From the IMG/VR virus record IMGVR_UViG_3300037851_000102, positions 32,001-96,000 of that record: DNA of 64,000 bases; one strand, 5' to 3'. Numbering within the stretch: the stretch's first letter is position 1; each line of letters starts with the position of its first letter. The notes under the pieces are model-generated. The model was not told the DNA's origin. It saw nothing but the letters and a program-made list of their open reading frames with translations, and ran no database searches. The position numbers and the translations under genes are program-made. The DNA comes from a virus. Below are positions 11,688 through 59,634 of the stretch, one piece after another.

Positions 11688-12019
11688 TGGCGTGGCTTCA
11701 TAAGAAGATTCAAGAACAGATGGCCGACAATTCTCAGGTCGTGCCTGAATGTAAATGGTCAGAGCGTGATCGCGCATTCTATATCAATTCGGTCGCAGGG
11801 CTCATCAAATACAAGCCCAAGGACGTGAAGGATTTAAACAGGTTTAGAGACAGATGGGTGAACTTGTTTGAGCAGTACAGATCCACTGCGCTCAATAACA
11901 AAGATCTTGAAAGCATGATGTTTGGGTTCACCAACATGATTCGCAAAGAAGAGCGCGTGAAGTACACGGCGAATATAAGAACAAGACTAAAGGGGACAGC
12001 GTGGACTTTAAGAGTTTAA
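11684..12019 (+). CDS. hypothetical protein
   Basis: 111 aa, translationally coupled. Confidence 0.7.
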   Translation: MMAWLHKKIQEQMADNSQVVPECKWSERDRAFYINSVAGLIKYKPKDVKDLNRFRDRWVNLFEQYRSTALNNKDLESMMFGFTNMIRKEERVKYTANIRTRLKGTAWTLRV

Positions 12020-17887: not shown

Positions 17888-17918
17888 TTTACATTATGCG
17901 GCAGACTGTGGGGCAGCT

Positions 17919-18230
17919 ATGGAATCCAAAATAAACGACGATAAGAGAAAACGACTCATGCGAGTGATGTTCGGGCCGATTGAGGTGCCCGCATGGGTCA
18001 TTAAACAGGTCTTCGAGAAACTTCCTGAAGATGCGGTCATGATTACGCATATTCACGATCCACAAAGATTGCAATGGGGATGGATTATTGCATCGATGGA
18101 ATTCCCAGTTGTGGAAGAGGGAGCAGTGTTACCGCCAGCGGTTGTATCGGTGGACGGAGTGAAGAAGACGGTTGAAATTACGAGACCAGTGACAGTGGAC
18201 TCATTTGAAGACGCATTGAAGGCACTATGA
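17919..18230 (+). CDS. hypothetical protein with C-terminal tag
   Basis: Ends DSFEDALKAL*. Confidence 0.75.
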   Translation: MESKINDDKRKRLMRVMFGPIEVPAWVIKQVFEKLPEDAVMITHIHDPQRLQWGWIIASMEFPVVEEGAVLPPAVVSVDGVKKTVEITRPVTVDSFEDALKAL

Positions 18231-18490
18231 GTGAGAATGAAACTGAAACAATAAAATTTCTGCGCGAGAAACTGGCTGAAGCGCAGGTTCAAAACGACAA
18301 ACTTCAAGCGGCACTTGAATCGGCGAAATCTGATATTAAAAACGCTACAAATCTAATTATCGACTTCATTGCGGAGTATTCCACGCCGAACAATTCACTG
18401 AAGACAGAGGACGCATTGGGCGGTCTCAAGAACTTCATAAGAGAGCGGTGTGATAGTGGATCCGAAAAACAAGCTGCGCCAAACGCTTGA
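18227..18490 (+). CDS. hypothetical coiled-coil protein (no tag)
   Basis: 87 aa, ATGA-coupled. Confidence 0.7.
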   Translation: MSENETETIKFLREKLAEAQVQNDKLQAALESAKSDIKNATNLIIDFIAEYSTPNNSLKTEDALGGLKNFIRERCDSGSEKQAAPNA

Positions 18491-18725
18491 ACACGCGATA
18501 GAGCAAATCAACAGAGATCCGCATCTGGTTCGTTCACACACAGTTGATGCACTTGCAGAGCAAGTTGGGCTCAAACGACGACAAGGGGAGCCTGACAATG
18601 TTCTTTGGGCTCGAATTGAGGGCTCAGGTCGGCTTGATGATTTACGCAAAGAGCTTATGGATAAAATGAATTCGCTTGGCAATGATGAGGTACGAGACTT
18701 TGAATCAGCACTGAAAAACTTGTGA
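18450..18725 (+). CDS. hypothetical protein with C-terminal tag and baseplate-like motif
   Basis: VDALAEQVGLKRRQGEPDNVLWARI; ends RDFESALKNL*. Confidence 0.75.
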   Translation: MIVDPKNKLRQTLEHAIEQINRDPHLVRSHTVDALAEQVGLKRRQGEPDNVLWARIEGSGRLDDLRKELMDKMNSLGNDEVRDFESALKNL

Positions 18726-18731
18726 GGATGT

Positions 18732-19049
18732 ATGAAGCTGAGGGCGAGAAGCAAATTAGAGGATTCAAAAGAGGTTGAACTTTCAATGGAATCACTCGGC
18801 AAATTGTTGGCGGATGGTCTGAATGGAGTCTTCGAGAAGATCCACACAGATGATTGGAAGAAGTTTTCGTTGAAACTTGAATTCTATGCCAAAACAGATA
18901 GCAACGGCGTGTCAATTGCAAATCTTACATTATCTGAAACGACAAGTGGAGAGAAACCCGCTAACATTAAAAAAGCAGGGAAGCGGGTTGAGGGCTCCAC
19001 GGACGGGGCCGCTATTGTTGATTTTCTTGAGGGCTTGAAAAAGCTATGA
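18732..19049 (+). CDS. hypothetical protein with C-terminal tag
   Basis: Ends VDFLEGLKKL*. Confidence 0.75.
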   Translation: MKLRARSKLEDSKEVELSMESLGKLLADGLNGVFEKIHTDDWKKFSLKLEFYAKTDSNGVSIANLTLSETTSGEKPANIKKAGKRVEGSTDGAAIVDFLEGLKKL

Positions 19050-19450
19050 GTGAATCGGTGAAGCGGCCTTTGTTGATGGTTAAGCCCGAACTCGTTGCAA
19101 TGATCGACGATTGGGAGCGCATACGCGGCTCGAAGAGCGATGTAGAGCGCAGAAGACGGGAGCAAGAAGAGATTGCGAAGCTGCCCGTTTTAGATAGGCT
19201 CAAGCGCGAAATTTCAATTGGTGACAGAATAAAATTCGTCACAGCACAGAAGAACCGCAAAGCCGCGCTCGACAAGGAGTATGAGGTCTTATCAAAGCGG
19301 CGATACTGCACGAATCATGATGGTGGAGAGGTTGCGATCCTTTGTGATGATGGGAAGATTCGCGGATACTCGACCAGAAAAGTTGAAGTTATCAATCCAC
19401 AAAAACTCAGCGAAATAGAGCAGTTTTCAAACGCATTGGAGCTTTTATGA
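19046..19450 (+). CDS. hypothetical protein, possible SH3-like domain, with C-terminal tag
   Basis: ISIGDRIKF...KEYEV...ILCDDG; ends EQFSNALELL*. Confidence 0.75.
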   Translation: MSESVKRPLLMVKPELVAMIDDWERIRGSKSDVERRRREQEEIAKLPVLDRLKREISIGDRIKFVTAQKNRKAALDKEYEVLSKRRYCTNHDGGEVAILCDDGKIRGYSTRKVEVINPQKLSEIEQFSNALELL

Positions 19451-19794
19451 GCGAAACCATGCGGATGTTCACGCTTTATGTGGTGGAGAAGGAGACTGGA
19501 GAGCGGATTGCGATCCGTCCAGGTCTCATTTTTGAAGAAGAGCCAACAGCGGGAATCGCAAATCGTTTCACGATCAAGGCACTGAACACAGAGAAGCGCG
19601 AAGTGATTATTGAAGCACACGCATTCAAATCAGAGGTCACAGAATCGTGGGACAAGTTCGTTAAAATGGTCGCAGATGGCGAGTTAAAGCTCGTTAATTC
19701 AGAGAATGTGATCCGCGAGATGCGAGAGGCAAGAGAGCAGGGCAAGAGCGAGCAATCGGCCAAGGATTTTGAGGATGCGCTTAAAAATTTATAG
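19447..19794 (+). CDS. hypothetical protein with C-terminal tag
   Basis: Ends KDFEDALKNL*. Confidence 0.75.
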   Translation: MSETMRMFTLYVVEKETGERIAIRPGLIFEEEPTAGIANRFTIKALNTEKREVIIEAHAFKSEVTESWDKFVKMVADGELKLVNSENVIREMREAREQGKSEQSAKDFEDALKNL

Positions 19795-19803
19795 GGGACA
19801 GCG

Positions 19804-20280
19804 ATGTTTGATGAGTACAAGACAAGAGTGATGGGCAAGTTTGAAGAGCCAGAGATATCACACAGAGATATTGACAGGCTTGCAGAGTATTTCATACGTC
19901 GATCATTAAGATACTACGCAGGCGGTGGAGCCAGACACGTTGGCGGTGCGAGAATGCCAATGGAGTTCTACCGAGATCTTGCAAAGCAGGTGATTGAGCT
20001 TGCCTATAAATTTCACGGCGACAAATCGCATTCACTCAAGTCACTCGTTGCAATCATAATCGGGCCCGAAATCGAAAAGATCTTTTCACCCGATCCAAGA
20101 GAGGCGCGTCCACCTCAAGCAATCCTTGATGAGACCGATGAGAAGTTTTGGAAGATGATGGAAGAGCCAATGCTCACGAAAAAAGACATAGAATCCTTTA
20201 CAGAGAATGATTTTAAGCCAAAGAAGCCAAGGCCAAAGACAGAGATAGAAGAGTTCAACAAGGCACTTAAAAAGCTATGA
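19804..20280 (+). CDS. hypothetical protein with C-terminal tag
   Basis: Ends EEFNKALKKL*. Confidence 0.75.
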   Translation: MFDEYKTRVMGKFEEPEISHRDIDRLAEYFIRRSLRYYAGGGARHVGGARMPMEFYRDLAKQVIELAYKFHGDKSHSLKSLVAIIIGPEIEKIFSPDPREARPPQAILDETDEKFWKMMEEPMLTKKDIESFTENDFKPKKPRPKTEIEEFNKALKKL

Positions 20281-20579
20281 GCAAGCTCCCAAAGACCCGA
20301 TCAATTTACGATGTCGATAGGCTCACTTCAAGCTCAGAGATAAAGCTCGACGGCAGGACAATCGGCACAATCACAGATATCAGAATCGAAGACGGCACAG
20401 CCCACGTCGAAGCGACAATCACACCGCCAAAGCCCATTGAATCAATCACCTTTGAAGGCACAATCACAGGCTTTGAATCCATTGAAGAGATCCCAAAACC
20501 GAAATCCAAACGCCTCAGACACACACCAAAAGAGAAATCAGAAATTGAAGCATTTGAAGAGGCACTCAAAAACCTATGA
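20277..20579 (+). CDS. hypothetical protein with C-terminal tag and sheath-C-terminus-like segment
   Basis: TAHVEATITPPKPIESITF; ends EAFEEALKNL*. Confidence 0.75.
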   Translation: MSKLPKTRSIYDVDRLTSSSEIKLDGRTIGTITDIRIEDGTAHVEATITPPKPIESITFEGTITGFESIEEIPKPKSKRLRHTPKEKSEIEAFEEALKNL

Positions 20580-20902
20580 AGCCAGAAGGAATCACAATCA
20601 CACAGTATATGCTTCCCGAAGGCCCAATACACTTTGATACGGCCTCAGCCGAACAGCTCGATAGAATCGGAGAGCTACACGCAATCAGAAGAGACGACGG
20701 AGAGCCAGACGCAAGTTACAGATCCAAGCTATTAAAGGCACTTCATTCAAGAACGTCATACATGACCACAGATGAAGTGAAACAGTTCTTCGATCCCGAC
20801 ACAGGCAAAGAGTTCGTACAGATAGACCCAAACGAAATTCAAGCCAAAATCCAACACACGCAACAAGTCCAAGACTTTTTGACGGCGCTCGACAAGCTCT
20901 AA
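20576..20902 (+). CDS. hypothetical protein with C-terminal tag and baseplate-like motif
   Basis: TASAEQLDRIGELHAIRRDDGEPDASYRSKL; ends QDFLTALDKL*. Confidence 0.75.
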   Translation: MKPEGITITQYMLPEGPIHFDTASAEQLDRIGELHAIRRDDGEPDASYRSKLLKALHSRTSYMTTDEVKQFFDPDTGKEFVQIDPNEIQAKIQHTQQVQDFLTALDKL

Positions 20903-21003
20903 AACAAACGCTCGACCAACATACTACAATGTAATACATTCAATTCCGTAGTCAGGGAGAATCTAATGTATTCGCCGATACAGACACCATTGGAGTAACA
21001 ACA

Positions 21004-21834
21004 GTGAGTAAATGGAAGCCCAGAAGAGATTTTAAAGCAGTAACAGATAAGCGCACTTCAAAGAAGTCGGCTTCAAAACAATCAGATCCAACACCACAAG
21101 AGTTCCAAAGAGACCTCGAAGATTTAGACGTGCCAGATTTATTTGAAAAGGGCACAAGAATCTTGAAGCGTGACATGGGTGGAGCAGACAAGCTCAAGCA
21201 CGATGGTCACATTCTTATGATGGAGTGGGCGATTAAGTATTCAGACATGATACCGCGCAAATTCTTAATGGAGCGCAGAGGTTATTCACACGCACAAGCA
21301 GACGTGATTTTAGCGGTCACAGGTTCAACGTCAGAATGGGCGAATGCGCGAGAGCGCGTACTTGATTCAATGAGTGAATCAGTTATCAAGCGGCACATTG
21401 ATAAGCTCGTTGAAGTGAACGATCAGCACATAGCGGCCTCAAAGCTCACGATGGCAAAAGCGATTGAGATGCTCACGAAATTGCCCGTGGATGTGGAATT
21501 AGATCCAAAGACAGGCAAATCAAAGAAGCGCACTATGAGATCAATTGATCTTGTGAATTGCGCAAACGCGATTGAGAAGGCGCAATCGATCTATCGAAAG
21601 GCGATGGGCTTGCCAAACGAAGAGTCAGGTCTTGCGCAGATCTTGGAGAAGGTCGCGCAATTAAACGTGCAACAAAATGTTCAGATCAACAACACGGTTG
21701 TCCAGCAACAGCCTGAGAAGAGTGAGCAACAGAAGAAGATAGAGGCATTAAGCTATGATGACATTATGGAGTTCGTTGAATTTAGAAGAGAGCAGAAGAG
21801 ACTCGCGCAACAGCCAAAGGACACTGGATCTTGA
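21004..21834 (+). CDS. hypothetical helical protein, possible terminase small subunit
   Basis: 276 aa; helical with a Q/N-rich C-terminal strand as seen in some TerS proteins; function is tentative. Confidence 0.45.
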   Translation: MSKWKPRRDFKAVTDKRTSKKSASKQSDPTPQEFQRDLEDLDVPDLFEKGTRILKRDMGGADKLKHDGHILMMEWAIKYSDMIPRKFLMERRGYSHAQADVILAVTGSTSEWANARERVLDSMSESVIKRHIDKLVEVNDQHIAASKLTMAKAIEMLTKLPVDVELDPKTGKSKKRTMRSIDLVNCANAIEKAQSIYRKAMGLPNEESGLAQILEKVAQLNVQQNVQINNTVVQQQPEKSEQQKKIEALSYDDIMEFVEFRREQKRLAQQPKDTGS

Positions 21835-21872
21835 GCGATTGTATGCGTATGGGGCAGAGGGTGAGGTTTTAG

Positions 21873-22112
21873 ATGTCACACATGATGGGTCAACAGAAGG
21901 CTCGGATGAGGGAAGAGAACAGGAATTGGCAGGAGAGAGATCGGGAGAACTTGAGCGGGAGAGCTTTGCGTAGGGAGCAGGAGCGCAAGGTCGCTGCATG
22001 GAATAGAGAGCAGGCGCGACTACGATCCGAAGAAGAGATTAGAGAACGGGCGCGGGAGCGAGAGCGATTGGTTTCGATTGAACGGTTCCAAGACGCGCTG
22101 GAGAACTTATGA
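21873..22112 (+). CDS. Arg/Glu-rich protein with C-terminal tag
   Basis: Ends ERFQDALENL*. Confidence 0.7.
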   Translation: MSHMMGQQKARMREENRNWQERDRENLSGRALRREQERKVAAWNREQARLRSEEEIRERARERERLVSIERFQDALENL

Positions 22113-22264
22113 AGGATTTAATCAATTTTACGTTCGCGCTTATCGCATTTGTCGCACTATTCCTTGTGCTTCCATTCGTGGTCTATAGCATCAACAAGTA
22201 TGTTCACCATGATCGCATCGAACAGATGATTGAATCAAAGGTAAAGGCGGAGTGTTTACGATGA
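22109..22264 (+). CDS. small membrane protein (51 aa)
   Basis: MKDLINFTFALIAFVALFLVLPFVVY...; ATGA-coupled at both ends; below the ORF-track size cutoff. Confidence 0.6.
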   Translation: MKDLINFTFALIAFVALFLVLPFVVYSINKYVHHDRIEQMIESKVKAECLR

Positions 22265-22368
22265 GTGAGCTTTTAGGATTCGCAGAGAGAAACCCAATAC
22301 TCGCAGTGATCTTGGCTTATATCATCGTGCAGGGCTTGGTTTATATGATCCAAGCGATTAGGAGATGA
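22261..22368 (+). CDS. small membrane peptide (35 aa)
   Basis: MSELLGFAERNPILAVILAYIIVQGLVYMIQAIRR; ATGA-coupled. Confidence 0.55.
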   Translation: MSELLGFAERNPILAVILAYIIVQGLVYMIQAIRR

Positions 22369-22454
22369 GCGATTGGGAGTGGATACTTTTGATCGCGATG
22401 CCATTGATTGTAATGATCGCGATGAGTTTAGTTTTATGTAATTATTTTTGTTAG
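22365..22454 (+). CDS. small membrane peptide (29 aa)
   Basis: MSDWEWILLIAMPLIVMIAMSLVLCNYFC; ATGA-coupled. Confidence 0.5.
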   Translation: MSDWEWILLIAMPLIVMIAMSLVLCNYFC

Positions 22455-22462
22455 GAGATGAA

Positions 22463-22792
22463 GTGAAGCCAGAGCAAGTTTCAAACGATGTACTTGAGTT
22501 TTTAAAAAATAAATATGGCGATGAGATCAACATTGAATCATTGAGGCTTGGTCTTGGTCTCACAGTTTCAGCGATTCATGCAACGCTGATTCATTCGGCC
22601 AAAACAGATGATGAACGACAAGGGGCAGTTCACACAGCGATGGACACGGTGGAGCGCATGATTGGTTCGATCCAAAAAGATTGCGAAATTTGTGGAATGC
22701 CTGGAATTGAATTCGTTAAGGGTATTGTGGATGAGAACGGCAACATGGTTGAAACTAAACAGGGGGAGAACGATGAAGGTCGGGTTCATTGA
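22463..22792 (+). CDS. hypothetical protein
   Basis: GTG start after AGGAG. Confidence 0.7.
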   Translation: MKPEQVSNDVLEFLKNKYGDEINIESLRLGLGLTVSAIHATLIHSAKTDDERQGAVHTAMDTVERMIGSIQKDCEICGMPGIEFVKGIVDENGNMVETKQGENDEGRVH

Positions 22793-23033
22793 TTTAGCAG
22801 AGAACGCATTCAAGATTGAAAAACAGATTGAACACGCGCTTAGAGATCGTTGGCTGGATGGAGACACAGCACACGAATTCAAAAACGAAATGTATAAGCG
22901 CAGAAAACAAAAGGGTGGATTGAAAGCCCTACTGAAAGAGATCAACACAGAGATTGAATTCAGAAAGAAAACATTCGGGGGGATGGATGAGACAATTAAA
23001 CAAAAGGCAAATAGAGTTAATACTGCCGTCTGA
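22773..23033 (+). CDS. hypothetical protein
   Basis: ATG after GGGGGAG. Confidence 0.65.
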   Translation: MKVGFIDLAENAFKIEKQIEHALRDRWLDGDTAHEFKNEMYKRRKQKGGLKALLKEINTEIEFRKKTFGGMDETIKQKANRVNTAV

Positions 23034-23229
23034 TATCACACTTGATATGCTCTATTCAGCGATGCACGAGGGGTTTTTGAATCACACACTCAAGACCAGC
23101 ATCGATGGCAAACCTTTTCATTTGGGAATTGAAATGGTCAGTGGGAATTCAGAGATCCAAACGATTTTGGTCACGAAGATTCCAGCGCACCACAAACAAG
23201 GAGCAAACAATGAAACAGGGGAGCAATAA
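22987..23229 (+). CDS. hypothetical protein
   Basis: ATG after GGGGGG. Confidence 0.6.
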   Translation: MRQLNKRQIELILPSDITLDMLYSAMHEGFLNHTLKTSIDGKPFHLGIEMVSGNSEIQTILVTKIPAHHKQGANNETGEQ

Positions 23230-23707
23230 TATGGGGACATTCGCATTTTTAATGTTTTGCGCAGCGATATTCGCAGCGATGGGCATTTGGCATTATTCAC
23301 AATCAGAGGACACGGCCTTTCACAAGACGCTCGGCCTATGTCGATCATGTGAAGCAGATGTAAAGCGCCACGAAGAGAAGTTAAAGAAGTATGATGAGGA
23401 TTTTAAAGCGTTGAATGCGCGATTGGATGCAGCGGAAGCGGAAGTAAAGAAATTCACTGAACAGCTTGATATATTCCGCGATCAGGTCTCAGACACACGC
23501 GAGAAGCAGATCCAACTCAAGGATGATTTATCGAATAAGACTCAGCGATTGGTGATGCCAAAGGGCCCGATTCCAGTTGAGATCTATGTAGCACCAACGG
23601 TCAGAGCCACAGCACCGAAACAGCAAGCACCGCCTAAGATTCCAAAAGAGACACCACAGCAAACCATGAAGAAGATCAAAAAGCAGATCGATGGGTTATC
23701 GAAATGA
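23210..23707 (+). CDS. membrane-anchored coiled-coil protein
   Basis: AAGGAG ribosome-binding site; N-terminal transmembrane segment followed by a coiled coil. Confidence 0.7.
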   Translation: MKQGSNNMGTFAFLMFCAAIFAAMGIWHYSQSEDTAFHKTLGLCRSCEADVKRHEEKLKKYDEDFKALNARLDAAEAEVKKFTEQLDIFRDQVSDTREKQIQLKDDLSNKTQRLVMPKGPIPVEIYVAPTVRATAPKQQAPPKIPKETPQQTMKKIKKQIDGLSK

Positions 23708-23943
23708 AGATCCAAAGAATGCTCGAATACTTGAAGACGCTTGCGAAGATGAAGCGAAATTTCTTTGGTGAGCTTGCAGATGAAGCGAAATCAGAAATTG
23801 ATAAGGCGAGACTTCAGGGCATGGCAGATGCCCACGCCGAACAGACAAACGAGCTTGAGCAGATCAGTGCGGCCATGATCGAAACGCCAGATCAGATGCC
23901 ACAGCAAACCGAGAGCGCACCGATAGGAGTAACACTACAATGA
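23704..23943 (+). CDS. hypothetical protein
   Basis: 79 aa, translationally coupled. Confidence 0.65.
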   Translation: MKIQRMLEYLKTLAKMKRNFFGELADEAKSEIDKARLQGMADAHAEQTNELEQISAAMIETPDQMPQQTESAPIGVTLQ

Positions 23944-24146
23944 AGCAAGACGTGAATACGCAAAAGGCGAAATTCAATAAATTGTATAAAGAGATGGCCG
24001 AGATCGTTAATACTTTCGATGGGCACAACAGAGATCTTGCTATGCAGGGTCTCAGTAGTTGTGACTTGTGGGCAAATTCGTATTTTACAAAAGAAGGAGC
24101 GAACGATGGAACGAGAGAAGAGACTATTCAACGGTCAGCCGATTGA
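23940..24146 (+). CDS. hypothetical protein
   Basis: 68 aa, translationally coupled. Confidence 0.6.
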   Translation: MKQDVNTQKAKFNKLYKEMAEIVNTFDGHNRDLAMQGLSSCDLWANSYFTKEGANDGTREETIQRSAD

Positions 24147-24453
24147 ACTTGGACAGCAACGAGAGAAGCCAGCGGGGTTGATTCTGCCCGATCAGGATTT
24201 AAAGAAGCTGCATGAAGATCAACTCAAGGCAGAAGCAGAGAAGCGAGCGGCAGAAGAGAAGCGCGTATTCGATCAGATGGTTGAGAGCCCACAGGCGATG
24301 CGGGGAGTGATCCAAGAGTGCATCAATCGTGGCAAGGTCAGATTGAGTATGGATTTGGATTTACTTGATGATGAACAGGTGAAAAAGACTTTCATTCATT
24401 TGTGGGGTCAAGCGGGAGCAGGCAAGCCGAGCGTTACCGAAATCAGTATTTAA
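24106..24453 (+). CDS. hypothetical protein
   Basis: AAGGAG ribosome-binding site. Confidence 0.7.
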   Translation: MEREKRLFNGQPIELGQQREKPAGLILPDQDLKKLHEDQLKAEAEKRAAEEKRVFDQMVESPQAMRGVIQECINRGKVRLSMDLDLLDDEQVKKTFIHLWGQAGAGKPSVTEISI

Positions 24454-24722
24454 TGGGATGCTCATCTTGCGGTGGGGGAATTAAGAAGCCCACGAAGTTC
24501 CAACAGGTGAGATCCTTCGCATTAAGTCTTGCCAACGTGATTGAACACGCGATATCCACAGGACAGATCGTTGCAGATCGTGGGACAGTGGATAAGCGCA
24601 TTCAGATATGTACTCAATGCAAATACAGAGAGCCCATTAGAAACCGCTGCAAGGCTTGTGGTTGTTTCTTGGCAGCTAAGAGTGGCCTTGCCAGCGAAAC
24701 GTGCCCACAGGGGTATTGGTGA
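24453..24722 (+). CDS. Cys-rich zinc-binding phage protein
   Basis: MGCSSCGG, R..ICTQC, RCKACGCFL, CPQGYW. Confidence 0.7.
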   Translation: MGCSSCGGGIKKPTKFQQVRSFALSLANVIEHAISTGQIVADRGTVDKRIQICTQCKYREPIRNRCKACGCFLAAKSGLASETCPQGYW

Positions 24723-24728
24723 GGTTAT

Positions 24729-25055
24729 ATGGGGCATTTACCAACATTAGAGAGTGACGCAAGCGGGAGAGTGAGAATCACATGGCCTGATGGACGCAGG
24801 TCAGAGGGACATATCACCAAAATGAATGTTCAGATGGGGAGAGGTTCGCTTGGTGAGCATACTCAAACGCTGGACTTCACTTTGACGTGCTTTGAGCCCA
24901 TGCTATCCGAAGAAGCCAGCACAATGAAGGCGGCAGCGGATGAAGCGAACAAAAGAGTCAGAGAAAATAAAGCCAAAAAAGAAGGCGTTAAAAAGATGGA
25001 AGAAGACCGTCTCAAGCCAGTCAGAGACTTCATCAAAGGCCTCGAACAGTTTTAG
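24729..25055 (+). CDS. hypothetical protein with C-terminal tag and tail-tube-like segment
   Basis: VRITWPDGRRSEGHITKM...LDFTLT; ends RDFIKGLEQF*. Confidence 0.7.
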   Translation: MGHLPTLESDASGRVRITWPDGRRSEGHITKMNVQMGRGSLGEHTQTLDFTLTCFEPMLSEEASTMKAAADEANKRVRENKAKKEGVKKMEEDRLKPVRDFIKGLEQF

Positions 25056-26306: not shown

Positions 26307-26831
26307 ATGGCGGTCAATTTCTCGACTCTGTTTGAGGATTTAGTTCGCAACGAGTCGCACAGATATGAATATGATCGCCTTTTGTCAGAGGCAATCCAAG
26401 TCCTCGCCCAAGGCGGCGGTGGAATTCAATGGATTGACGGTGTTCCCTATATTCCAGACCCAGGTCGCGCCAAAAACATATCGCTCAATCGTCCAGTTTT
26501 TACGGCAGGGTATTATGGTCAGAATCAATCGAGCCGATACCTGAGAGTGGACGGTGTGACCACTTCGAGTGATTCGGGCATTTTGCTCCCAAGAGATGCA
26601 GTGATAACGAGCTTGTGGGGGAAGAGTCGTTCAAACAACAATTGGTCAATAGAAATAAGACGAAATGGCAATCCGATAACGCTTGTGTCAGTGAATGTGG
26701 TTGGTTCGGTTGGCAGTGATCCAGAACTTGATATCGATTTGGACGCTGGGGATTTTATTCAATTTTACATGGTCGGCAGTGGGGTCGATCATCCAATCGC
26801 AGGCGTAGAAATCGCTTGGCGAGCCAATTAA
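26307..26831 (+). CDS. putative virion fibre/decoration protein
   Basis: Beta-rich C-terminal domain paralogous to the C-terminus of 26841..28355. Confidence 0.55.
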   Translation: MAVNFSTLFEDLVRNESHRYEYDRLLSEAIQVLAQGGGGIQWIDGVPYIPDPGRAKNISLNRPVFTAGYYGQNQSSRYLRVDGVTTSSDSGILLPRDAVITSLWGKSRSNNNWSIEIRRNGNPITLVSVNVVGSVGSDPELDIDLDAGDFIQFYMVGSGVDHPIAGVEIAWRAN

Positions 26832-26840
26832 GGGGGGCAA

Positions 26841-28355
26841 ATGAGTTTTTTCAGAGTAACAGAACCGAATTCAGTCGCAGTTCCAATTGATGATTTAGGT
26901 ATAGTGATCGCGGCGGATGCGGCAAACGTCGTTTTATCAAACCAGTTCTCAGTTCATGATTTGTATCTTTCAGCGGATCTCGAAGCTGCAATCATCAACG
27001 GGGACTTAGATGTAGAGATCAACTACGGCACGGGCTTCGCGGCAGTGGCGGCAGTGGATTATACAAACCGAGATGCACTTGCGGCATTTTTGAACGTATT
27101 TGAAATCACCAACGAAAACTCAAACGAGCGTTTGGTGAACAATACGGACGCTTCTTCGGGTTCACAGCTTCACCATCATGATACGCGATACTTCACCAAG
27201 ACAGAGCTTCAATCGACGGCCAATGGATCTTCGGGCGGCACCTTAATTGGTCTGAACGATGATGCGTGGGACACAGAGTATCCTTTCACATTCACGACCT
27301 TGCAGGGCTTTGTTGATGGTCTTTACACGATTTTAACAACGGGTTTTGACCTTGACCAAGTTTACGACAACGATGCAGACGGCATTTTAAATGTCGATGG
27401 CACAACGAAGCCTTTGGACTTCAGATCAGACAACGTGAACGACATTATTATCAGTCGTTTCTCAACGCCAGATCTTCAGCAAGCATTGATTTTTGATGTC
27501 AGCGCAGATGAGTTGATTCTTGGATCTCTTGCGGTTGGTGGACTCAACGACATCAATGTGAGAGTTCGATCAGATCTTATCGTTGATGGGGACATCGTAT
27601 TTACAGGGACTATCACAGATACCACAGTCAACGAATTGAACGTGACCAACGCCAACATTCGCTTGCGTGATGGGGCGACAGCGGTTCCAGGCGCAGATGC
27701 TTACATTGAAGTTGAGCGCGGAACTTCGGGCAACGATGCAAGACTTCTTTGGAACGAGACTTCGGATCGTTGGCAGGCAGGCATTGTCGGCACACTTGGC
27801 ACCATTGCACTCCTTGAGTTCGATGAGATTGTAACAGGCGTTTGGGAATTCCAAGGCGGAGCGGCCACAGAGCCTTCGATGTACTTGACCGACAAGGCAT
27901 CGGCACCGACCACAAACCTTGGGACTGCAACACAGATCCCAATTTCAATGATTAACAACACTCCTGCGTACTACGACAAATCGAATTCAAGAAATAAGTT
28001 CTTGTCGATGTATCGAATGCACCAAGCGTTCTCAGGTCGTGATAACGCCAACAACTCGAACGAATATCTTCGTGCGGGAGAGTTTACGTCAAATCAGTCG
28101 AGCTATCGCTTGATTAAAAACATGACTCTGATTGGAATCTCAGCACAGACAAACGGAGCGGAGACTTGGACAGCGCGTGTGAGAAAGAATGGAGTAGTGA
28201 CCAACTTGGCCTCTCTCGCTCTTTCAGCGGTCGCTGGAGCCCAAGATGCAACGCTAAACGTGGACTTCAATGCTGGAGATAAGATCGAAGTTTATTGCGA
28301 TGGCACAGGCGTTGACAGACCTTTTGTGATGCTTGAGTTCGCTGAAAGGTTCTAA
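26841..28355 (+). CDS. putative fibre protein
   Basis: HHHDTRYFTKTE fibre-type motif, EVERGT...LLWNETSDRW, Thr/Gly/Asp-rich. Confidence 0.65.
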   Translation: MSFFRVTEPNSVAVPIDDLGIVIAADAANVVLSNQFSVHDLYLSADLEAAIINGDLDVEINYGTGFAAVAAVDYTNRDALAAFLNVFEITNENSNERLVNNTDASSGSQLHHHDTRYFTKTELQSTANGSSGGTLIGLNDDAWDTEYPFTFTTLQGFVDGLYTILTTGFDLDQVYDNDADGILNVDGTTKPLDFRSDNVNDIIISRFSTPDLQQALIFDVSADELILGSLAVGGLNDINVRVRSDLIVDGDIVFTGTITDTTVNELNVTNANIRLRDGATAVPGADAYIEVERGTSGNDARLLWNETSDRWQAGIVGTLGTIALLEFDEIVTGVWEFQGGAATEPSMYLTDKASAPTTNLGTATQIPISMINNTPAYYDKSNSRNKFLSMYRMHQAFSGRDNANNSNEYLRAGEFTSNQSSYRLIKNMTLIGISAQTNGAETWTARVRKNGVVTNLASLALSAVAGAQDATLNVDFNAGDKIEVYCDGTGVDRPFVMLEFAERF

Positions 28356-29338
28356 TGCCTAAGCTGTTTCTATCCACAACTGGAGCAGATGTCGTGATCC
28401 CCGAATTGGGGATCTCGATTATTCATCCAGCAACGGATTATGAAATAGACGCGCAATTCTCTGCGGAAGATCTTGCGCTTGCATCGAGCTTAACGACAGC
28501 AATCAATAATGGTTCACTTGTATGGAAGAAGACTGCGGGCGGTTCAGCACAGCCGCCAACAGATTACGATCCAGATTATTTGGAAGCAGAAGAACTCTCA
28601 GGCGGTTCAGGCAATCTGAATCAACAGCTTGTCAAATCTCTTGGGAGTTCAATTCTAAGCCTCAAGGCGCAAGTTCAGGCGACAGTGGCGGGGACATTGG
28701 TTCTCACACGCGGGACTTCGACAGTTTTGATTTTTACAGGCACGACAGCGGGTCAGATCATTCAGCTACCAGGTGCGACGACACTGGATAACGGCCATTA
28801 TTTTGAAGTTTGGAACGTCAGCACAGAATCAATCGTTGTTAAGAATGCAGGCGGCGGGACACTCTTCACGATAGGTCAGACATCGACGGCGTATATTAAA
28901 TTGCAAGACAACACGACATCGAATGGGTTGTGGGTGTACTGGCAGGTTTTCGTTTCAGCACTTGCAGCGGGAATTCTAAACTACACGCTCACTTCGGGCG
29001 TGAACTTCATAACAGCATCGACATCGGACACGATCATCACTGGATTTACAGTGACACCACAAGCGGGCTTGTATGCAGCGTGGTTCTCTTGTGATGTGAC
29101 GATTGCGACCAACAACAGGCTTATGGACTCGGTTCTTTACATTGGCGGAGTCGAGAACGCCAACACGCGAAGGACAGTCCAAGGGGTCTCTTCAAACTTT
29201 AGAGCAACATCATCAGTCATCGGTCTTGCCAACGTGAACGGATCGCAAGCGGTGGATGTATGGGTGAAGAGTTCGGGCGGTAACATCACCGTTGGTCAGC
29301 GTTCGCTCGTTCTAATTAGATTGGGGACAAACGTATGA
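28355..29338 (+). CDS. putative fibre/structural protein
   Basis: N-terminal domain paralogous to 26841..28355; Thr/Gly-rich beta repeats. Confidence 0.6.
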   Translation: MPKLFLSTTGADVVIPELGISIIHPATDYEIDAQFSAEDLALASSLTTAINNGSLVWKKTAGGSAQPPTDYDPDYLEAEELSGGSGNLNQQLVKSLGSSILSLKAQVQATVAGTLVLTRGTSTVLIFTGTTAGQIIQLPGATTLDNGHYFEVWNVSTESIVVKNAGGGTLFTIGQTSTAYIKLQDNTTSNGLWVYWQVFVSALAAGILNYTLTSGVNFITASTSDTIITGFTVTPQAGLYAAWFSCDVTIATNNRLMDSVLYIGGVENANTRRTVQGVSSNFRATSSVIGLANVNGSQAVDVWVKSSGGNITVGQRSLVLIRLGTNV

Positions 29339-30039
29339 TGGTATTTAATTTTACGAAATCACCGTGCAATCCTGCGCGATTAAAACTTGAGATCGAAGCA
29401 TCTTCAATCACAGTGGCACTTGCATCGGTCTCTCTATTGGGTGCAGATGCGTTGACCGTTTCTTTTAAGGCAGATCTTTCTGCGGGCGAAGAGACGACTC
29501 TTAACGGTCTTGTGACCGCACACACGGGCGAAGATCTTCCAGATGATTATGTGGCGACAGTACAGCTTGAAGCACTTCCAGAGCCAGAGCCCTTTGCAAA
29601 GCCGAGCTTTAGAACAAAGCGAAACAAGACGGCAGCGTGGCAGACGATCACCGAAGGTCAGACAGTGGATCTCGATTTTCTTTTGACAGAAGAGCGATAC
29701 GTTTCAGGTGGAGAGATCATTTACAAGGGAGCAAAAGAGGGCGACTACGTTAAAGCCTCAGTGATGGACGTATTCAATGGGGGAGTGATACCAGCACCAT
29801 ATCGTCCAGCCAACGTCGGCATTTGCGAGAATTGGCCCCTTGTGAATGAGTATATTAACGGCGAGTGGATTGTTCCGAACAACACGAATGAAGAGTACAA
29901 GAGCAAGATTATCAACACATATCCTTTGAACGCGAAGATCACTCCATATTTGGTTTTGCGAGTGACCTACACAGCATCGGCAGAAGCGGGTGAGAGACAC
30001 GTCGCCGTGAACTATCATCTCACGAAAAAATTGTTATGA
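29335..30039 (+). CDS. hypothetical protein, probably structural
   Basis: 234 aa, coupled to the fibre-like genes. Confidence 0.65.
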   Translation: MMVFNFTKSPCNPARLKLEIEASSITVALASVSLLGADALTVSFKADLSAGEETTLNGLVTAHTGEDLPDDYVATVQLEALPEPEPFAKPSFRTKRNKTAAWQTITEGQTVDLDFLLTEERYVSGGEIIYKGAKEGDYVKASVMDVFNGGVIPAPYRPANVGICENWPLVNEYINGEWIVPNNTNEEYKSKIINTYPLNAKITPYLVLRVTYTASAEAGERHVAVNYHLTKKLL

Positions 30040-30802: not shown

Positions 30803-32275
30803 ATGATGAGTTCGGTTGAAGATGAAAGATTGAAGTTCATAGCGTATTCTGCGCTTGATGAAGAGACGCTTCTAAGGACGGATCTCGCCTATTTTGCGGA
30901 AGAGATTCTTAACATGGAGATCTCAGATCACCACAAGTCTTGGTCAAGGCTTGTAGCAAAACACAAAAAACTTGCAATCGAAGCACCTCGAGATCACGGG
31001 AAGAGCTTCATGTTCTCATTCGCTTATGCGATATGGAGAGCGTACTTCAATTGGATTCCAAGCTCGCTTGCGGTCTCTTCAGATTTCAAATCGATTCCAA
31101 GAGTGAGTATTGGTTACATATTCTCGAACACTCAAGATCAGTCCATCAAACTTCTCGAACTCGTAAAGAGAGAGATTGAAGATAATCCAAAGCTCGAACA
31201 CCTGATTCCAGCGGACAAAGACGTGTGGTCAAAGACAGAGATCAGGCTATCAAACGGAGCGGCCATTCGAGCAAGAGGTTGGGGTCAATCAGTACGGGGA
31301 GCCCATCCAGTTTGGATCGTGGCGGATGACTGTTTGAACGATGAAACGATTTATTCTGAACTCACACGAAACAAGCAGATTGATTACTTCTTCTCAGCGG
31401 TGACACCGATGCTTGTGCCAGGTGGACAGTTGATTGTTGTGGGCACTCCATTCCACAGAGAAGATCTTTATCAAAGGCTTTCAGAAAACCCTGCGTATCA
31501 CTTCCACAGAAGCCCTGCGCTTGATGCGGGCGGGGCACCACTATGGCCGACACGTTACACGAAAGAAATGCTCGTACAGCGAAAGCAAGAGGTTGGTTCG
31601 GTTCGATTCTCAAGAGAGTATTTGTGCCTTCCAATTTCTGACGAATCGTCTCTCTTCCCTGAAAAGATTCTCGAACAGTGTTATGAGCCAGAGTTTGAAA
31701 TGCCAACACAGGTCGAGCCAGAGTGGAGAAAAGAGCTTCGCATTTACACTGGAGTCGATTTCGCCATGTCTTCCACAGTTGGAGCCGATTACACGGTTCT
31801 CACAACGATTGGCGTGGACAAGTATCAGAATCGCTGGATTCTGGACATACGTCGTAAAAAGGGTCTTTCATTTGGCGAACAGCTTAGAGAGATCCAAGAT
31901 GTGGCAAGACAGTATAAGCCGCTTAAAATTCTGTGCGAGAACAACGGATTTCAAAAGATTTTCTCAGATACACTTGTCAGACACACGGATCTTCCAGTTG
32001 AGGGCTACACTACGACAGCCAGCAAAAAGAACAGTTTTGAAGAAGGAGTGCCATCTCTTCAGATTTTGTTTGAGAATTGTAAGTTCAAGATTCCGAGAAG
32101 GACTGCAAGATGTCGCGAGAAAACGGATATTCTCATAAACGAATTAAAATGCTTCACATGGGCGGAAGGCAAGCTGCAAGGGCTTGGAGCGCACGACGAC
32201 ACGGTGATGTCCTTGTGGATAGCAAATCAGGCGATATCTGCCCACGATTTCAGTTTCAGTTTTGTCGGCGATTAA
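30803..32275 (+). CDS. terL: terminase large subunit
   Basis: APRDHGKS Walker A, RGAHP..IVADD, VGTP, GVDFA, HDDTVMSLW nuclease motifs. Confidence 0.95.
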   Translation: MMSSVEDERLKFIAYSALDEETLLRTDLAYFAEEILNMEISDHHKSWSRLVAKHKKLAIEAPRDHGKSFMFSFAYAIWRAYFNWIPSSLAVSSDFKSIPRVSIGYIFSNTQDQSIKLLELVKREIEDNPKLEHLIPADKDVWSKTEIRLSNGAAIRARGWGQSVRGAHPVWIVADDCLNDETIYSELTRNKQIDYFFSAVTPMLVPGGQLIVVGTPFHREDLYQRLSENPAYHFHRSPALDAGGAPLWPTRYTKEMLVQRKQEVGSVRFSREYLCLPISDESSLFPEKILEQCYEPEFEMPTQVEPEWRKELRIYTGVDFAMSSTVGADYTVLTTIGVDKYQNRWILDIRRKKGLSFGEQLREIQDVARQYKPLKILCENNGFQKIFSDTLVRHTDLPVEGYTTTASKKNSFEEGVPSLQILFENCKFKIPRRTARCREKTDILINELKCFTWAEGKLQGLGAHDDTVMSLWIANQAISAHDFSFSFVGD

Positions 32276-35159: not shown

Positions 35160-35876
35160 ATGAATGCGCAGATCGTAAAGTGGATTAAAATCGTAGTTAT
35201 GAGAACGCTGCGGGAGAAAGGGCTCACGCGGCTTGATGTCTCCACTCTGATCTCCGCAGGAATGCTCGGTTACTCTCAGGCGCTAAGAAGGTTCGACAAG
35301 GATCGCGGTGTAAAATTCAAAACATTCGCAGAATATCGAATCAAGGGCGCAGTTCTCGATGAAGTTCGTAAAATGATTGGCGATGAACGCTGCAAGACCA
35401 AAAGACCACGAAAGGTCGATGATTTTGATTTTGATCTTATTGGCGATGATGGCAGGCAGTTCGAGTACGTCGAATCGGCCATGTCAATCCAAAGTTTCAT
35501 GGCAAGCGCGGCACTTGATGTCCGCGAAAAAGAGATTCTTGAATGCCGCTATGCTGGCATGAACCTTAGAGAAATATCTCAAAAATTTGGCTTCAGCGAA
35601 TCAAGGGCTTCTCAGCTTTTGGTGAAGATCAAAAAAGAGGTGTACGCTCATTACTCAAAAGAAATGAAACTTGATTTTGGCCTCGCCACTCATCAATGCC
35701 CGTCATGTCATGGGGATAATACGGTTTCGGATCGCGTGGATGGGTTCCGTTGCGACATTTGCGATGCGGATCTCAGGATCGTCGATGGTGTTCCGATATT
35801 GGCTGTGACAGACGACGGATTATCGGGAGAGGATATCGATGTTCAACGATTTGCAAAAATTGGCCTCAACGCTTGA
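35160..35876 (+). CDS. FliA/WhiG-like RNA polymerase sigma factor with a C-terminal zinc ribbon
   Basis: Region 2 RFDKDRGVKFKTFAEYRIKGAVLDEVRK; region 4 MNLREIS..FGFSESRASQ; CPSC...CDIC. Confidence 0.88.
   Translation: MNAQIVKWIKIVVMRTLREKGLTRLDVSTLISAGMLGYSQALRRFDKDRGVKFKTFAEYRIKGAVLDEVRKMIGDERCKTKRPRKVDDFDFDLIGDDGRQFEYVESAMSIQSFMASAALDVREKEILECRYAGMNLREISQKFGFSESRASQLLVKIKKEVYAHYSKEMKLDFGLATHQCPSCHGDNTVSDRVDGFRCDICDADLRIVDGVPILAVTDDGLSGEDIDVQRFAKIGLNA
35773..35799 (+). promoter_or_regulatory. candidate sigma-28-type promoter for the head gene cluster
   Basis: TCAGGATC-N11-TCCGATAT, 39 nt before the ATG at 35839. Confidence 0.5.
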
Positions 35877-37365
35877 TGAACACATCGAGAAGGGTCAAAA
35901 ATTAGAAAAGAAATCTCGAATTGAAGTCTATGAAGAGCAGATCGCAAAAGGCCTCTCGCACGATCCCTTCATGCCTCACGAAATGTCTTACGATTCGCCA
36001 TATTACAATCCATATCGATTGGTTCCTGGAGAGGGCTTTTTGCCGTATCCAGCGGAGTATTGGGAATCGCAGGGCAAAAACAAGGAAGACTATCGGCTGA
36101 CGAGCGAACTCTATCAGCGGATCGCGCCAGTGCAGAAGGCTCTTGATGGACTTTTTGGCCTTGGACGACTTCTTGAGAAAGATCTTGAGAAGGGCGGAGC
36201 CGTTCCAATTGGAACGATTCATACCTATGCTGACGGACAGCGTTATAAGAAAGTTCAAGAAGGAGTGTGGACTCCAGTCGCAGGCCTCGAAGACAAATCA
36301 CACGCGAAGTGGCTTCAGCATAAAGATCCGAAAGTTCGACAGAAGGCTTCGGGCATGATCGAAGAACACGCTGGTAAGGCTGATAAGGTCAAACAATTGA
36401 TCGAACAGCGCACACGCGAACAGAAGCATGGCGATGAGATCAAGCGACAAACGATGAAGGAAGCCATTGGGCACGTCCGAACGGCGATGTCCAAGCTCTA
36501 CGATGGCGATGTCCCTGAAGGCATGGAAGATCATTTTAAGAAGGTCGAAGATCAGGCTGGTATTCCGTCTGAACTCCAAAGAAAAATCGGTAAGCGTGGC
36601 AAAGGCCAAGGCCGTGAAATCAAGCTCTCAAAAGATGAGCTTCAGACTCTTTTGAAGTCTGGCAAGTACGCGCTCATCTCCGCTGGTCGAAATCCAGCGC
36701 ACGAAGAGGATGTAAAGCTCGGCGATGATAAGATTCAAGAGCGTTATGATTCTTTAAAGAATGAACTTGTTGAGGGCGGATACGCATTCTCGAATGTCAA
36801 AGGTCACTACGGCGGCCAAGAAGACAGCTTCCTTGTGATGGTTCACGAAGCAGACAAAGAGTATATCAAAAAGCTCGGCACCAAGTTTAATCAGGATTCG
36901 ATCATTTACTCTGAGAAGGGTAAACACGAAATGCACTTCACGACTGGCGAAAAAAAGGGCAAGCACCATAAAGGTGAAGGTCTTGATCCAAAGGCCGAAG
37001 GCGCAGAAGATTATTATTCTGAGGCCGAGACTGCGGATGGTGAGAAGGTGAAGTTCGCGCTCAATTTTGATTTTGCGAAAGAGTATGGTGAGGGTGGAGC
37101 GGAGAAGGTCGATCCTAAGAAGAACTTGAAAGAGATTGGCGACACGTTAAGCGGGTCGAAGAAGCATCATGTGACAGTGGACTTCACTCACGGCGGGCAG
37201 AAGTACAGTCACAAGTTTGAGAATGTATCTGCGACAACACATTCGGAAGCGACGGACAAGGTTCATGCGGCCTTGAGATCTAAACTTCCAGGTGCGCAGG
37301 TGTCGAGAGTGAAAGTTGAACAACAAAGATCGCCGAAGGGTGCAGAGGCACAGGGGGAAGTATGA
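35839..37365 (+). CDS. head-associated multidomain protein with a SAM-lyase-like domain
   Basis: Several K-[GA] sites in the N-terminal part; YALISAGR...GHYGGQEDSFLV...FNQDSII. Confidence 0.6.
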   Translation: MFNDLQKLASTLDEHIEKGQKLEKKSRIEVYEEQIAKGLSHDPFMPHEMSYDSPYYNPYRLVPGEGFLPYPAEYWESQGKNKEDYRLTSELYQRIAPVQKALDGLFGLGRLLEKDLEKGGAVPIGTIHTYADGQRYKKVQEGVWTPVAGLEDKSHAKWLQHKDPKVRQKASGMIEEHAGKADKVKQLIEQRTREQKHGDEIKRQTMKEAIGHVRTAMSKLYDGDVPEGMEDHFKKVEDQAGIPSELQRKIGKRGKGQGREIKLSKDELQTLLKSGKYALISAGRNPAHEEDVKLGDDKIQERYDSLKNELVEGGYAFSNVKGHYGGQEDSFLVMVHEADKEYIKKLGTKFNQDSIIYSEKGKHEMHFTTGEKKGKHHKGEGLDPKAEGAEDYYSEAETADGEKVKFALNFDFAKEYGEGGAEKVDPKKNLKEIGDTLSGSKKHHVTVDFTHGGQKYSHKFENVSATTHSEATDKVHAALRSKLPGAQVSRVKVEQQRSPKGAEAQGEV

Positions 37366-40573: not shown

Positions 40574-40806
40574 AGATTCACATTGAGTCTTCATCGCAAG
40601 AAGAGTTCGATCAGAAGCGCGAAGATCTTATCAAGGCGATTGCTGGTTCAAAGCTCAAAGTAAAAATTGAGAAGAAGGGTCAAAGGCTTGCGACAGATGC
40701 GCGTGAGCCTTATTACGAATCTCAAAAGACCGTTCTTAATCATTGGGACAAGAAATTCAAAAAGATGATCTCTGACATCAAGGCGGACATCGATGAAATC
40801 ATTTAG
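40570..40806 (+). CDS. hypothetical protein
   Basis: 78 aa, translationally coupled. Confidence 0.65.
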   Translation: MKIHIESSSQEEFDQKREDLIKAIAGSKLKVKIEKKGQRLATDAREPYYESQKTVLNHWDKKFKKMISDIKADIDEII

Positions 40807-43800: not shown

Positions 43801-43915
43801 CAGGCTGAGAACCATCGGGCGATGGACGCAAGGCCAAAGAGATTACTTCTTATCAACGGCACGATTGACTCCACAAGCGAAAGCAAGAATAAGAGCATTA
43901 GGGAGAGCGACATGA
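40793..43915 (+). CDS. large multidomain head-associated protein with an N-terminal Nudix hydrolase
   Basis: Complete Nudix box GGHLDEGEDKHEAAIRELYEEAGI; further modules separated by K-[SAG] sites. Confidence 0.8.
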   Translation: MKSFSFFIDIAKGKEVASIAVMDGSKLLMGKRRDNGRWTLPGGHLDEGEDKHEAAIRELYEEAGIKAEKKELKLLGTRKLKTFTGKDYKIHAFRMDGASIKRLSHGTKDPDEEIEKWEWIETKDGLPKDVAENLHSPKNVVLQKIGLQKSFADDLNFNLQIWKGVMNLQKADRIHGGLADKKKRSNFDSKQLAAGKKVEMEHTNDSKVAEEIAMDHLTEDPKYYVKLKKIEKSGEGSRGGKIIGHTKSGKPIYQSGFSHESVKHFTKQDHKDAKKKHYEVGGNHYENYVNELEVANGEERSPHPSAYENEKLANHHADQAMAHDEASKKIDKSFFIMDMVKALGHKYLRKYQRNGKWIYVYHEGEGHGRRLSEEHLEHMSWLAEHGEGNVRQKMRELIENAKAHNEEHLENLRHVADKHEDENVRRRAHEHLKKFGIDRDIEKLEDQAHAAANADDLNKQLAPADQRKWMEEIKGILNSKVFGHLASHMDSPWSQSVVRARITLESVMRDVQTKQNPKDILDALHAEMKKIDQAQAGSPPSANSEVNRVGGYGSMAYNEVMKKLEEKGLVPTKYSRTHKMERSERTAMPKFKEHLDQLSEQERREAAERAERERREAAEKAERERREAEALAVAHRTHAESVEKMSNYFGVTLSDIEKRRLSGNIEKFFGSDFKFQRMFDHLQGHKDVEIRIGEGFMQGLQRGSNSLSVGFTFHAPDGRKITSASRTITKNSDGSIDWHNGVFSRAANQDLKRYDGMASGLYGGVENFLREISKNWTGSAKENTRVSIGTAANGGFGDSYKGSNVWAKHYFEWESNRKSGFQSRWKSKASEMMARIGRESELADFNRHIDGAEYLYQFLRTPIQLTKQEAERALGRSLDFDFNQIIEKKGKIDIGDLIMTSTGASYGGAVAYINKTSGRHGHLNEKRRRMYDAVLPESRSFPARPMRSAADADRAARTAQQEADRRRSETASRHGISGGERDHVDRYNRYWTRGDANIRLTESRLRTIGRWTQGQRDYFLSTARLTPQAKARIRALGRAT

Positions 43916-59220: not shown

Positions 59221-59634
59221 ATGTCACAAGTAATGACAGGTGCGAAGGCGATCTTCAGATTGAACGGCAATCAAGTCGCATTCGCTTCCAGTGTAACGTA
59301 CAACGAGAACATTCAACTTGAAGAAGTGAATGTCCTCGACAATTTGGCAGTCGTAGAACACGCAGAGGTAGGATATCGAGTTGATATGTCCTGCCAAAAC
59401 TTCCGCGTGGCGAATCAATCGGTCAAACAGCTTGGCATTATGTCCAAGCTCAATGCGATCCTCACTCAAGGTGAGTTGACCGCAGAGATCATTGATCGCA
59501 CGACCAACGCAGTTATCCTTCTCATGGAAGGTGTCAAACTTGAGAGTCGTCAGACTTCAGTTGATGCCCGTGGGATCATGACTGAAACGTGGTCGTTCAA
59601 GGGACGCAAGTCCTCAGATGAAGCTGGTCAATAA
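59221..59634 (+). CDS. tail tube protein
   Basis: 137 aa beta-rich protein directly after the sheath gene. Confidence 0.85.
   Translation: MSQVMTGAKAIFRLNGNQVAFASSVTYNENIQLEEVNVLDNLAVVEHAEVGYRVDMSCQNFRVANQSVKQLGIMSKLNAILTQGELTAEIIDRTTNAVILLMEGVKLESRQTSVDARGIMTETWSFKGRKSSDEAGQ

Follow-up and report, generated by a model that had tools for sequence, protein, structure and literature searches.

Two small tagged proteins of a freshwater myovirus-type phage carry a helix-loop-helix motif of baseplate wedge proteins

Results

Two tagged proteins share a wedge motif

We analyzed a 64,000-nucleotide stretch (the window), which comprises bases 32001-96000 of the 110,388-bp virus record IMGVR_UViG_3300037851_000102. 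The record originates from a freshwater metagenome and is rated complete by CheckV, and its genes mark the virus as a myovirus-type phage. Within the window lies an array of small genes whose products end in a common short peptide, hereafter the tag. Two of these products, the 18450 protein (18450..18725) and the 20576 protein (20576..20902), were shown to be members of a small accessory family composed of a helix-loop-helix module of the baseplate wedge type, a linker, and the shared C-terminal amphipathic helix. A preliminary description of the window had taken these two, along with the 20277 protein (20277..20579) and the 24729 protein (24729..25055), for isolated fragments of tail and baseplate proteins that may serve as mimics. 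All four open reading frames (ORFs), the peptides quoted from them and the tag were found in place. By sequence comparison, two of the four proposed resemblances hold. What stands of the several structural mimics is therefore a pair of isolated, tagged wedge fragments outside the baseplate operon; since the likenesses to sheath and to tail tube fail, the claim shrinks to one small family based on one wedge motif. Positions below refer to the window unless the genome is named.

The 20576 protein matches wedge profiles of unrelated viruses

The motif had been described as that of gpJ/gpI-type wedge proteins, and independent profiles confirmed it in the 20576 protein, where it is the stronger of the two. 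Among 38,880 PHROGs, five baseplate families (1160, 5857, 7378, 4017, and 4056) matched residues 18-83, with phrog_1160 giving the best value (E 7.1e-5); phrog_1160 and phrog_7378 were also matched by the phage's own gpI-like protein. When phrog_1160 was run over the whole genome, it detected two loci only, the resident gpI-like gene (3e-7) and 20576..20902 (9e-6). The profile matches cover only positions 65-123 of 528. An exhaustive HMMER search of 1.8 billion representative proteins recovered one true relative, P0004, with 43% identity over residues 22-72 (E 4.4e-4). The top matches of this search, P0002 and P0003, are giant repetitive proteins with scores inflated by the repeats, and were dismissed as artefacts. 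P0004 is a protein of 202 amino acids (aa) from the phiCh1-VP31/ChaoS9 family of haloarchaeal myoviruses, and a strong member of phrog_1160 (6e-43). A hidden Markov model (HMM) of the phiCh1-VP31 family picked out the 20576 protein (5.8e-10) and then the 18450 protein (1e-3) from the phage proteome, followed by the next protein at 0.23 and the resident gpI-like protein at 2.8.

These values bear on the possibility that all four resemblances arose by chance and that none of the four proteins is related to tails. Chance does account for the 20277 and 24729 proteins, as described below, and the pairwise E values of the two small wedge-motif proteins against the phage's own baseplate protein were weak (0.04-0.06). 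For the 20576 protein, however, this explanation is refuted by the HMMER, PHROG, and family HMM results, which all fall in a single register, and we regard it as very improbable for the set of four.

An HMM built from the gpI-like proteins of the phage's own family matched the 20576 protein at an E value of only 0.71. The 20576 protein thus stands nearer to wedge proteins from unrelated viruses than to the resident one, and therefore is no recent copy of the resident gene. A search of IMG/VR for relatives of the 20576 protein returned none.

The module corresponds to a contact segment of wedge proteins

The sequence of P0004 was compared with the wedge chains of solved structures. It matched 9euf_H, the arm scaffold of phage 812 (residues 27-120, E 8e-6), and 9ndy_J, wedge protein 1 of Bas63 (1.4e-5), as well as the chains of phi92 gp146 and Pam3 gp22. 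A direct sequence search of the PDB with the 20576 and 18450 proteins gave nothing. On the strength of these sequence matches, the module is assigned as a homologue of the segment that runs from the N-terminal helices to the trifurcation in gp7/gpI-type wedge proteins. In solved baseplates this segment mediates contacts among three wedge-module chains and holds the (gp6)2-gp7 wedge together (PMC13433997).

Proteins of this type (the N-terminal 176 residues of 812 gp117/'TmpF', Bas63 gp024, phi92 gp146, Pam3 gp22, and phiCh1 VP31; PHROG 1160) have in common a helix-loop-helix with the pattern LD.[LI][GA]...R..GE.D..[YL]R.[RK][LI], which follows the N-terminal helices and precedes the trifurcation domain. 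The signature LD.LG...R..GE.D..YR.R[LI] is present in the 20576 protein and, more weakly, in the 18450 protein. Unlike the wedge proteins, these two are 108 and 91 aa long, are encoded outside the baseplate operon, and bear the C-terminal tag shared by small proteins of the phage. Neither gene is adjacent to a gp6/J-like gene in the baseplate operon, and both proteins lack the complete trifurcation and C-terminal domains of wedge family members, which are proteins of 200-1000 aa. In the alignment, the 20576 protein has no counterpart to wedge residues 1-50, which form the long N-terminal helices, and the 18450 protein retains one short helix. In the J-like protein of the phage, an inserted domain splits the motif in two, with SDLDNRAFEYGLER near residue 68 and GRDIESDQELRDRI near residue 262. 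This agrees with a signature shared by chains of the gp6 and gp7 types.

An AlphaFold2 (AF2) model of the 20576 protein placed a helix at residues 25-34, a loop, and a second helix at residues 45-60, with a predicted local distance difference test (pLDDT) score of 70-80. The best structural matches of this model were the same wedge chains, namely 9ndy_M (Z 6.1, root-mean-square deviation 2.0 Å over 44 residues, 32% identity) and chain D of phage 812, an arm scaffold (Z 5.8).

The 18450 protein is conserved in related phages

The weaker motif of the 18450 protein was also sustained, by its second place in the family HMM search, by its alignment to the gpI-like protein, and by an orthologue. BLASTP aligned its residues 7-43, in the same register, with residues 35-69 of the resident gpI-like protein (E 0.037), and its likeness to the 20576 protein exceeded that of 98% of shuffled sequences. 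An IMG/VR search for relatives of the 18450 family found none.

Three related genomes were compared: G001 (complete, 104 kb), G002 (complete, 108 kb), and G003 (a contig). The 20576 protein has no counterpart in the two complete ones. At the position corresponding to 18450..18725, where the neighbouring genes are about 44% identical between G002 and this phage, G002 encodes an 89-aa protein (L038:7115-7384, L038 being G002:C1:88400-108329). With the tags removed, the Smith-Waterman score of the pair was 66, compared with 23.5 ± 4.2 for shuffled sequences, none of 500 of which reached it; searched against the whole record, the E value was 1.4e-3. The orthologue retains LD..A...R..GE.D..L.AR, and its tag is the variant FMEDLKKI. 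The residues shared by the two orthologues are exactly those of the wedge-family signature. At the contig start of G003 (L040, G003:C1:1-9000), an ORF cut by the contig end contains the wedge motif LTELADHFGVIRQEGETDVAVRGRL, and the ORF preceding it ends in FERAIEELPE, a tag-like helix with two further residues. In all, a tagged wedge-core motif was found twice in this phage and once each in G002 and G003, the tag of the G003 protein being unseen because of the cut. Since the G002 orthologue and the G003 ORF both keep the motif, the comparison identifies the tagged wedge-motif protein as a conserved gene under selection, and not as debris. Both ORFs in the window are intact, tagged, and translationally coupled.

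Immediately upstream, 18227..18490 is the sole untagged gene in the coupled array; its last 41 nucleotides overlap the beginning of 18450..18725 with its GTG start, in a +1 frame relation. Fusion of the two products by frameshifting is unlikely, as the orthologue in G002 is an independent ORF of 89 aa with an equivalent start.

Position of the two genes relative to the tail operon

The wedge-motif genes lie at genome positions 50450 and 52576, about 50 kb away from the baseplate operon. The tagged genes had been described as far from the tail operon. This is true with respect to the sheath gene (57075) and the baseplate genes, which lie beyond the window end; the tagged block nonetheless abuts the late region, with fibre-like genes starting at 26307 and the terminase gene at 30803.

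We considered whether the two proteins belong to the phage's own baseplate as ordinary minor components or help to assemble it as chaperones, for example by transiently capping the J-like protein until the gpI-like protein is added. Such a role would agree with the homology to a wedge interface segment and with the location of the tagged block directly upstream of the late region, a single strand carrying every gene from 27 kb onward. The 50-kb distance, however, speaks against it, as does the closer relationship of the module to foreign wedge proteins than to the resident one. Moreover, the two complete relatives build the same baseplate, although both lack the 20576 protein and one of them, G001, lacks the tagged set altogether. 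A role in the own baseplate therefore appears unlikely.

The C-terminal tag is conserved as a peptide

The pattern F-x-x-[AG]-L-x-x-[LF]-stop ends 16 stop-to-stop ORFs of at least 40 aa, 15 of which are plausible genes, compared with about 0.011 expected from amino-acid frequencies. The leucine at tag position 5 is written with five different codons, which rules out conservation at the DNA level and indicates that the peptide is what is conserved. Three places before the phenylalanine there is usually a hydrophobic residue, so the tag is read as an amphipathic helix of about 12 residues, with the pattern [IV]-x-x-F-x-x-[AG]-L-x-x-L-COOH in this phage. It was drawn as a helix in the AF2 models of both the 20576 and 20277 proteins. 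ATGA overlaps couple genes of the tagged array. All tagged genes belong to the replication and accessory regions, and none to the head or tail modules.

Between genomes, the tag varies as a set. In G002, eight proteins end in F-x-x-x-L-x-x-[IL], most often F-M-x-[ED]-L-x-x-I-stop, and in the complete relative G001 no protein has the tag and the whole tagged set is absent. Relatives reached through the ParB-like and 276-aa neighbouring genes, which were too distant or too short, had no tag, except for the variant FVNYLMNL in L006. Most tagged proteins have no homologue even in the relatives, and their bodies are unrelated to each other. Only two tagged proteins gave a BLAST match in G002. One of them is a 148-aa WGR-domain protein (genome 18321..18767, minus strand, L002; Pfam E 9e-6), whose homologue is tagged too.

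No reader of the tag, whether a protease or another protein, was identified in this analysis, and nothing in it speaks for a protease in that role. At genome 10388..13357 (minus strand, L002), a CobT/vWA-like protein is paired with a MoxR/CobS-like AAA+ ATPase. This pair was rejected as a candidate, because it occurs in the tag-less G001 as well as in G002 and does not follow the distribution of the tag. The two tag-bearing genomes have eleven proteins in common that G001 lacks, and three genomes are too few to point to a reader among them. Short C-terminal peptides on otherwise unlike proteins that are read by one partner are familiar from docking tails, such as the clamp-binding ends of T4 gp43, gp33, and gp55, which bind gp45, and the acidic tails of T7 gp2.5 and gp4. 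The tag differs from these in that F-x-x-A-L-x-x-L resembles neither clamp-binding nor acidic tails and in that the tagged proteins are mostly orphans; no clamp gene turned up among about 60 proteins scanned.

The heterogeneity of the tagged array bears on two further explanations. In the first, the tag is a capsid-targeting or ejection signal, and the tagged proteins, including the wedge fragments, would be packaged and then injected to counter host defence, like the T4 internal proteins. The T4 internal proteins (IPI, IPII, IPIII, and the polymorphic IP locus) are likewise diverse, fast-changing small proteins, which have in common only the capsid targeting sequence (PMC3012670). In T4, however, this sequence is an N-terminal peptide that directs the proteins to the scaffolding core and is cut off by the prohead protease, whereas the tag here is C-terminal; no protease site was identified, and the head module contains no tagged gene. 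We consider packaging improbable.

In the second, the wedge module is an evolutionary relic, re-used as a generic binding or folding module whose target, in the host or the phage, has nothing to do with baseplates, as is presumably the case for the other tagged orphans. The module does sit among about 15 tagged proteins with unrelated bodies, including the WGR-domain protein and DUF proteins, and a short helix-loop-helix is all that remains of the wedge protein. The conservation of exactly the wedge-family signature between the orthologues speaks against such re-use, and the motif is otherwise confined to baseplate families. We hold a relic to be possible, although doubtful.

Sheath and tube likenesses could not be substantiated

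In comparisons with profiles and structures of baseplate, sheath, and tube proteins, the 20576 protein matched baseplate families as described above, whereas the 20277 protein matched no sheath profile and the 24729 protein no tube profile. The proposed likeness of the 20277 protein to the C-terminus of the phage's sheath amounts to 7 identities in 17 positions (BLOSUM62 score 31), which was equalled by 10% of shuffles and exceeded by several unrelated proteins, and is thus at chance level. The sheath family (PHROG 279) gave no match at E ≤ 1, and among 5.8 billion proteins the 20277 protein found only itself. Its single-sequence AF2 model had no sheath chain among its structural matches (best Z 2.9).

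The one faint signal that recurred in the 20277 protein was that of the first strands of MCE/MlaD barrels. The scores fell below the curated thresholds (20.8 bits against a cut-off of 25.1 for Pfam MlaD; E 0.022, 14.6 against 135, for TIGR04430), and the structural comparison was weak with both Atlas neighbours and Foldseek, VIA-align giving Z values of at most 2.9 with about 32-50 residues superposed. The protein was accordingly not assigned to this family. A weak match to phrog_3776 (E 0.029), a family that the tube protein matches too, did not reappear when the genome was scanned, and BLASTP against the phage's own tube protein gave no match.

The 24729 protein had been likened to siphovirus tail-tube strands, for which neither profiles, pairwise comparison, nor Atlas models gave support. 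No PHROG family matched at E ≤ 1, Pfam and NCBIfam returned noise only, BLASTP against the phage's own tube protein found no match, and the Atlas model, which starts from residue 32 (pLDDT 0.59), matched nothing. The sequence GGTGAGG provides a good ribosome-binding site before the ATG at 24729, so that the N-terminal strings on which the likeness was based are probably translated. By these comparisons, both proteins are ordinary tagged orphans with no demonstrable tail-protein ancestry.

Genome setting and neighbouring genes

The features of the tagged array and the main genes of the phage are listed in Table 1. The baseplate protein has roughly 190 metagenomic relatives. A megablast search of the 18-26 kb region against deposited phages found no match. 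Four further runs of freshwater metagenomes, produced by three studies (2020, 2025), contain read-length contigs identical to parts of 17900..22200, so the same phage occurs elsewhere at low abundance. No RNA run was among the sequencing runs listed as containing it. A scan of 14-27 kb for promoters and terminators found fewer sites than in shuffled sequence.

Table 1. Coordinates of the tagged wedge-motif proteins, their tags, and other features of the phage (window positions unless marked as genome).
Feature	Coordinates	Strand	Evidence
91-aa tagged protein, GTG start, wedge-like helix-loop-helix	18450..18725	+	ORF, HMM, orthologue
Wedge-like segment, residues ~7-58, motif VD.LA...R..GEPD..LWARI	18468..18623	+	BLASTP, HMM, alignment
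Tag FESALKNL	18699..18722	+	end of 91-aa protein
100-aa tagged orphan with a beta-meander of three strands (residues 20-48), followed by an unstructured linker and the tag helix	20277..20579	+	AF2 pLDDT 62
Tag FEEALKNL	20553..20576	+	end of 100-aa protein
108-aa tagged protein, gp7/gpI-type wedge N-terminal segment	20576..20902	+	profiles, HMM, AF2 model
Wedge-like segment, residues 20-94, motif LDRIG...R..GEPD..YRSKL	20633..20857	+	HMM alignment range
Tag FLTALDKL	20876..20899	+	end of 108-aa wedge-motif protein
108-aa tagged protein, no tail-tube likeness	24729..25055	+	
Tag FIKGLEQF	25029..25052	+	end of 24729..25055 protein
Terminase large subunit	30803..32275		
Portal	38771..40573		
Sheath	57075..59207		
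Tube	59221..59634		
J-like baseplate protein, 1174 aa	genome 101216-104740		
gpI/gp7-like baseplate protein, 373 aa	genome 104753-105874		
DnaE-type polymerase, SSB, UvsX-like recombinase, DnaB, primase, ligase	replication region		

Several genes have the sequence GGGGACAGC immediately next to their start codons (19795..19806 and 11993..12003 in the window; 13168, 26127, and 28688 in the genome), among them the tagged gene 19804..20280 and an SbcC-like gene at 12001.

Between the tagged block and the terminase gene, 26307..30039 holds a fibre-like cluster of four genes (174, 504, 327, and 234 aa) with no family match. At their C-termini, the 174- and 504-aa proteins share a domain of about 60 residues. 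The tag-bearing G002 also has the cluster, its 504-aa protein being 62% identical, and the tag-less G001 lacks it. A function in host recognition is possible. The presence of the cluster in only the two tag-bearing phages among the three genomes may mean that tag and host go together.

A 1040-aa protein encoded just after the portal gene (40793..43915) has NUDIX, DUF5661, and HEAT-repeat matches, and is possibly a large internal virion protein. A 508-aa protein encoded at 35839..37365 has an S-adenosylmethionine lyase family domain at residues 300-380.

Discussion

We favour, as the probable account, an accessory family built of wedge module, linker, and tag, for which binding of a wedge partner is put forward as a proposal, the 20277 and 24729 proteins being tagged orphans. 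In the proposed mechanism, the module would use the conserved wedge interface to bind a gp6/J-type or gp7-type partner, and the tag would join the captured complex to whatever reads the tag, so that wedge assembly would be modulated or blocked. We advance this binding and coupling tentatively. This partner may come from the phage itself, but another contractile machine in the same cell is the likelier source, a speculation prompted by the closer resemblance of the module to foreign wedge proteins than to the resident one.

Several observations weigh against this proposal. The AF2 model of the 20576 protein is poor overall, with a pLDDT of 52 and only about 35 residues modelled confidently, and a Z score of about 6 is within the range of common helix-loop-helix arrangements and indecisive alone. 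Single-sequence queries in hhalign gave E values of only 0.011 and 0.12; the latter belongs to the 18450 protein, which matched no PHROG family and is marginal alone. A fragment that lacks the first 50 or so residues and most of the trifurcation domain may form no wedge interface. The two proteins could also be minor virion or assembly components, and the relatives available for comparison were limited to three.

A more specific scenario is that these tagged minimal copies of the wedge core block or re-route the baseplate wedges of rivals (co-infecting phages, prophages, tailocins, or type VI secretion systems), or act as decoys for an immune sensor of wedges, with the C-terminal helix handing the captured partner to the common reader. 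A reading as decoy or poison subunit is permitted by the sequences, and we consider this full scenario quite unlikely. A precedent for poison subunits is provided by satellites that hijack helper assembly with truncated or diverged relatives of virion proteins, such as P4 Sid, SaPI CpmB, and PICI Ccm. These differ from the wedge fragments in that their targets are capsids and in that they are encoded by satellites. We know of no other case of an isolated baseplate-wedge motif.

Should the motif be no more than a relic, it would represent a modest case of domain re-use among phage orphan genes. Binding of wedge partners by the isolated motif, on the other hand, would make it the first phage-encoded mimic in baseplate assembly known to us, and the motif would then offer a natural minimal peptide with which to probe or inhibit contractile injection systems, including phage tails, tailocins, type VI secretion systems, and extracellular contractile injection systems. 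The motif gives one of the few tagged proteins a testable partner, and thereby a possible handle on the reader of the tag.

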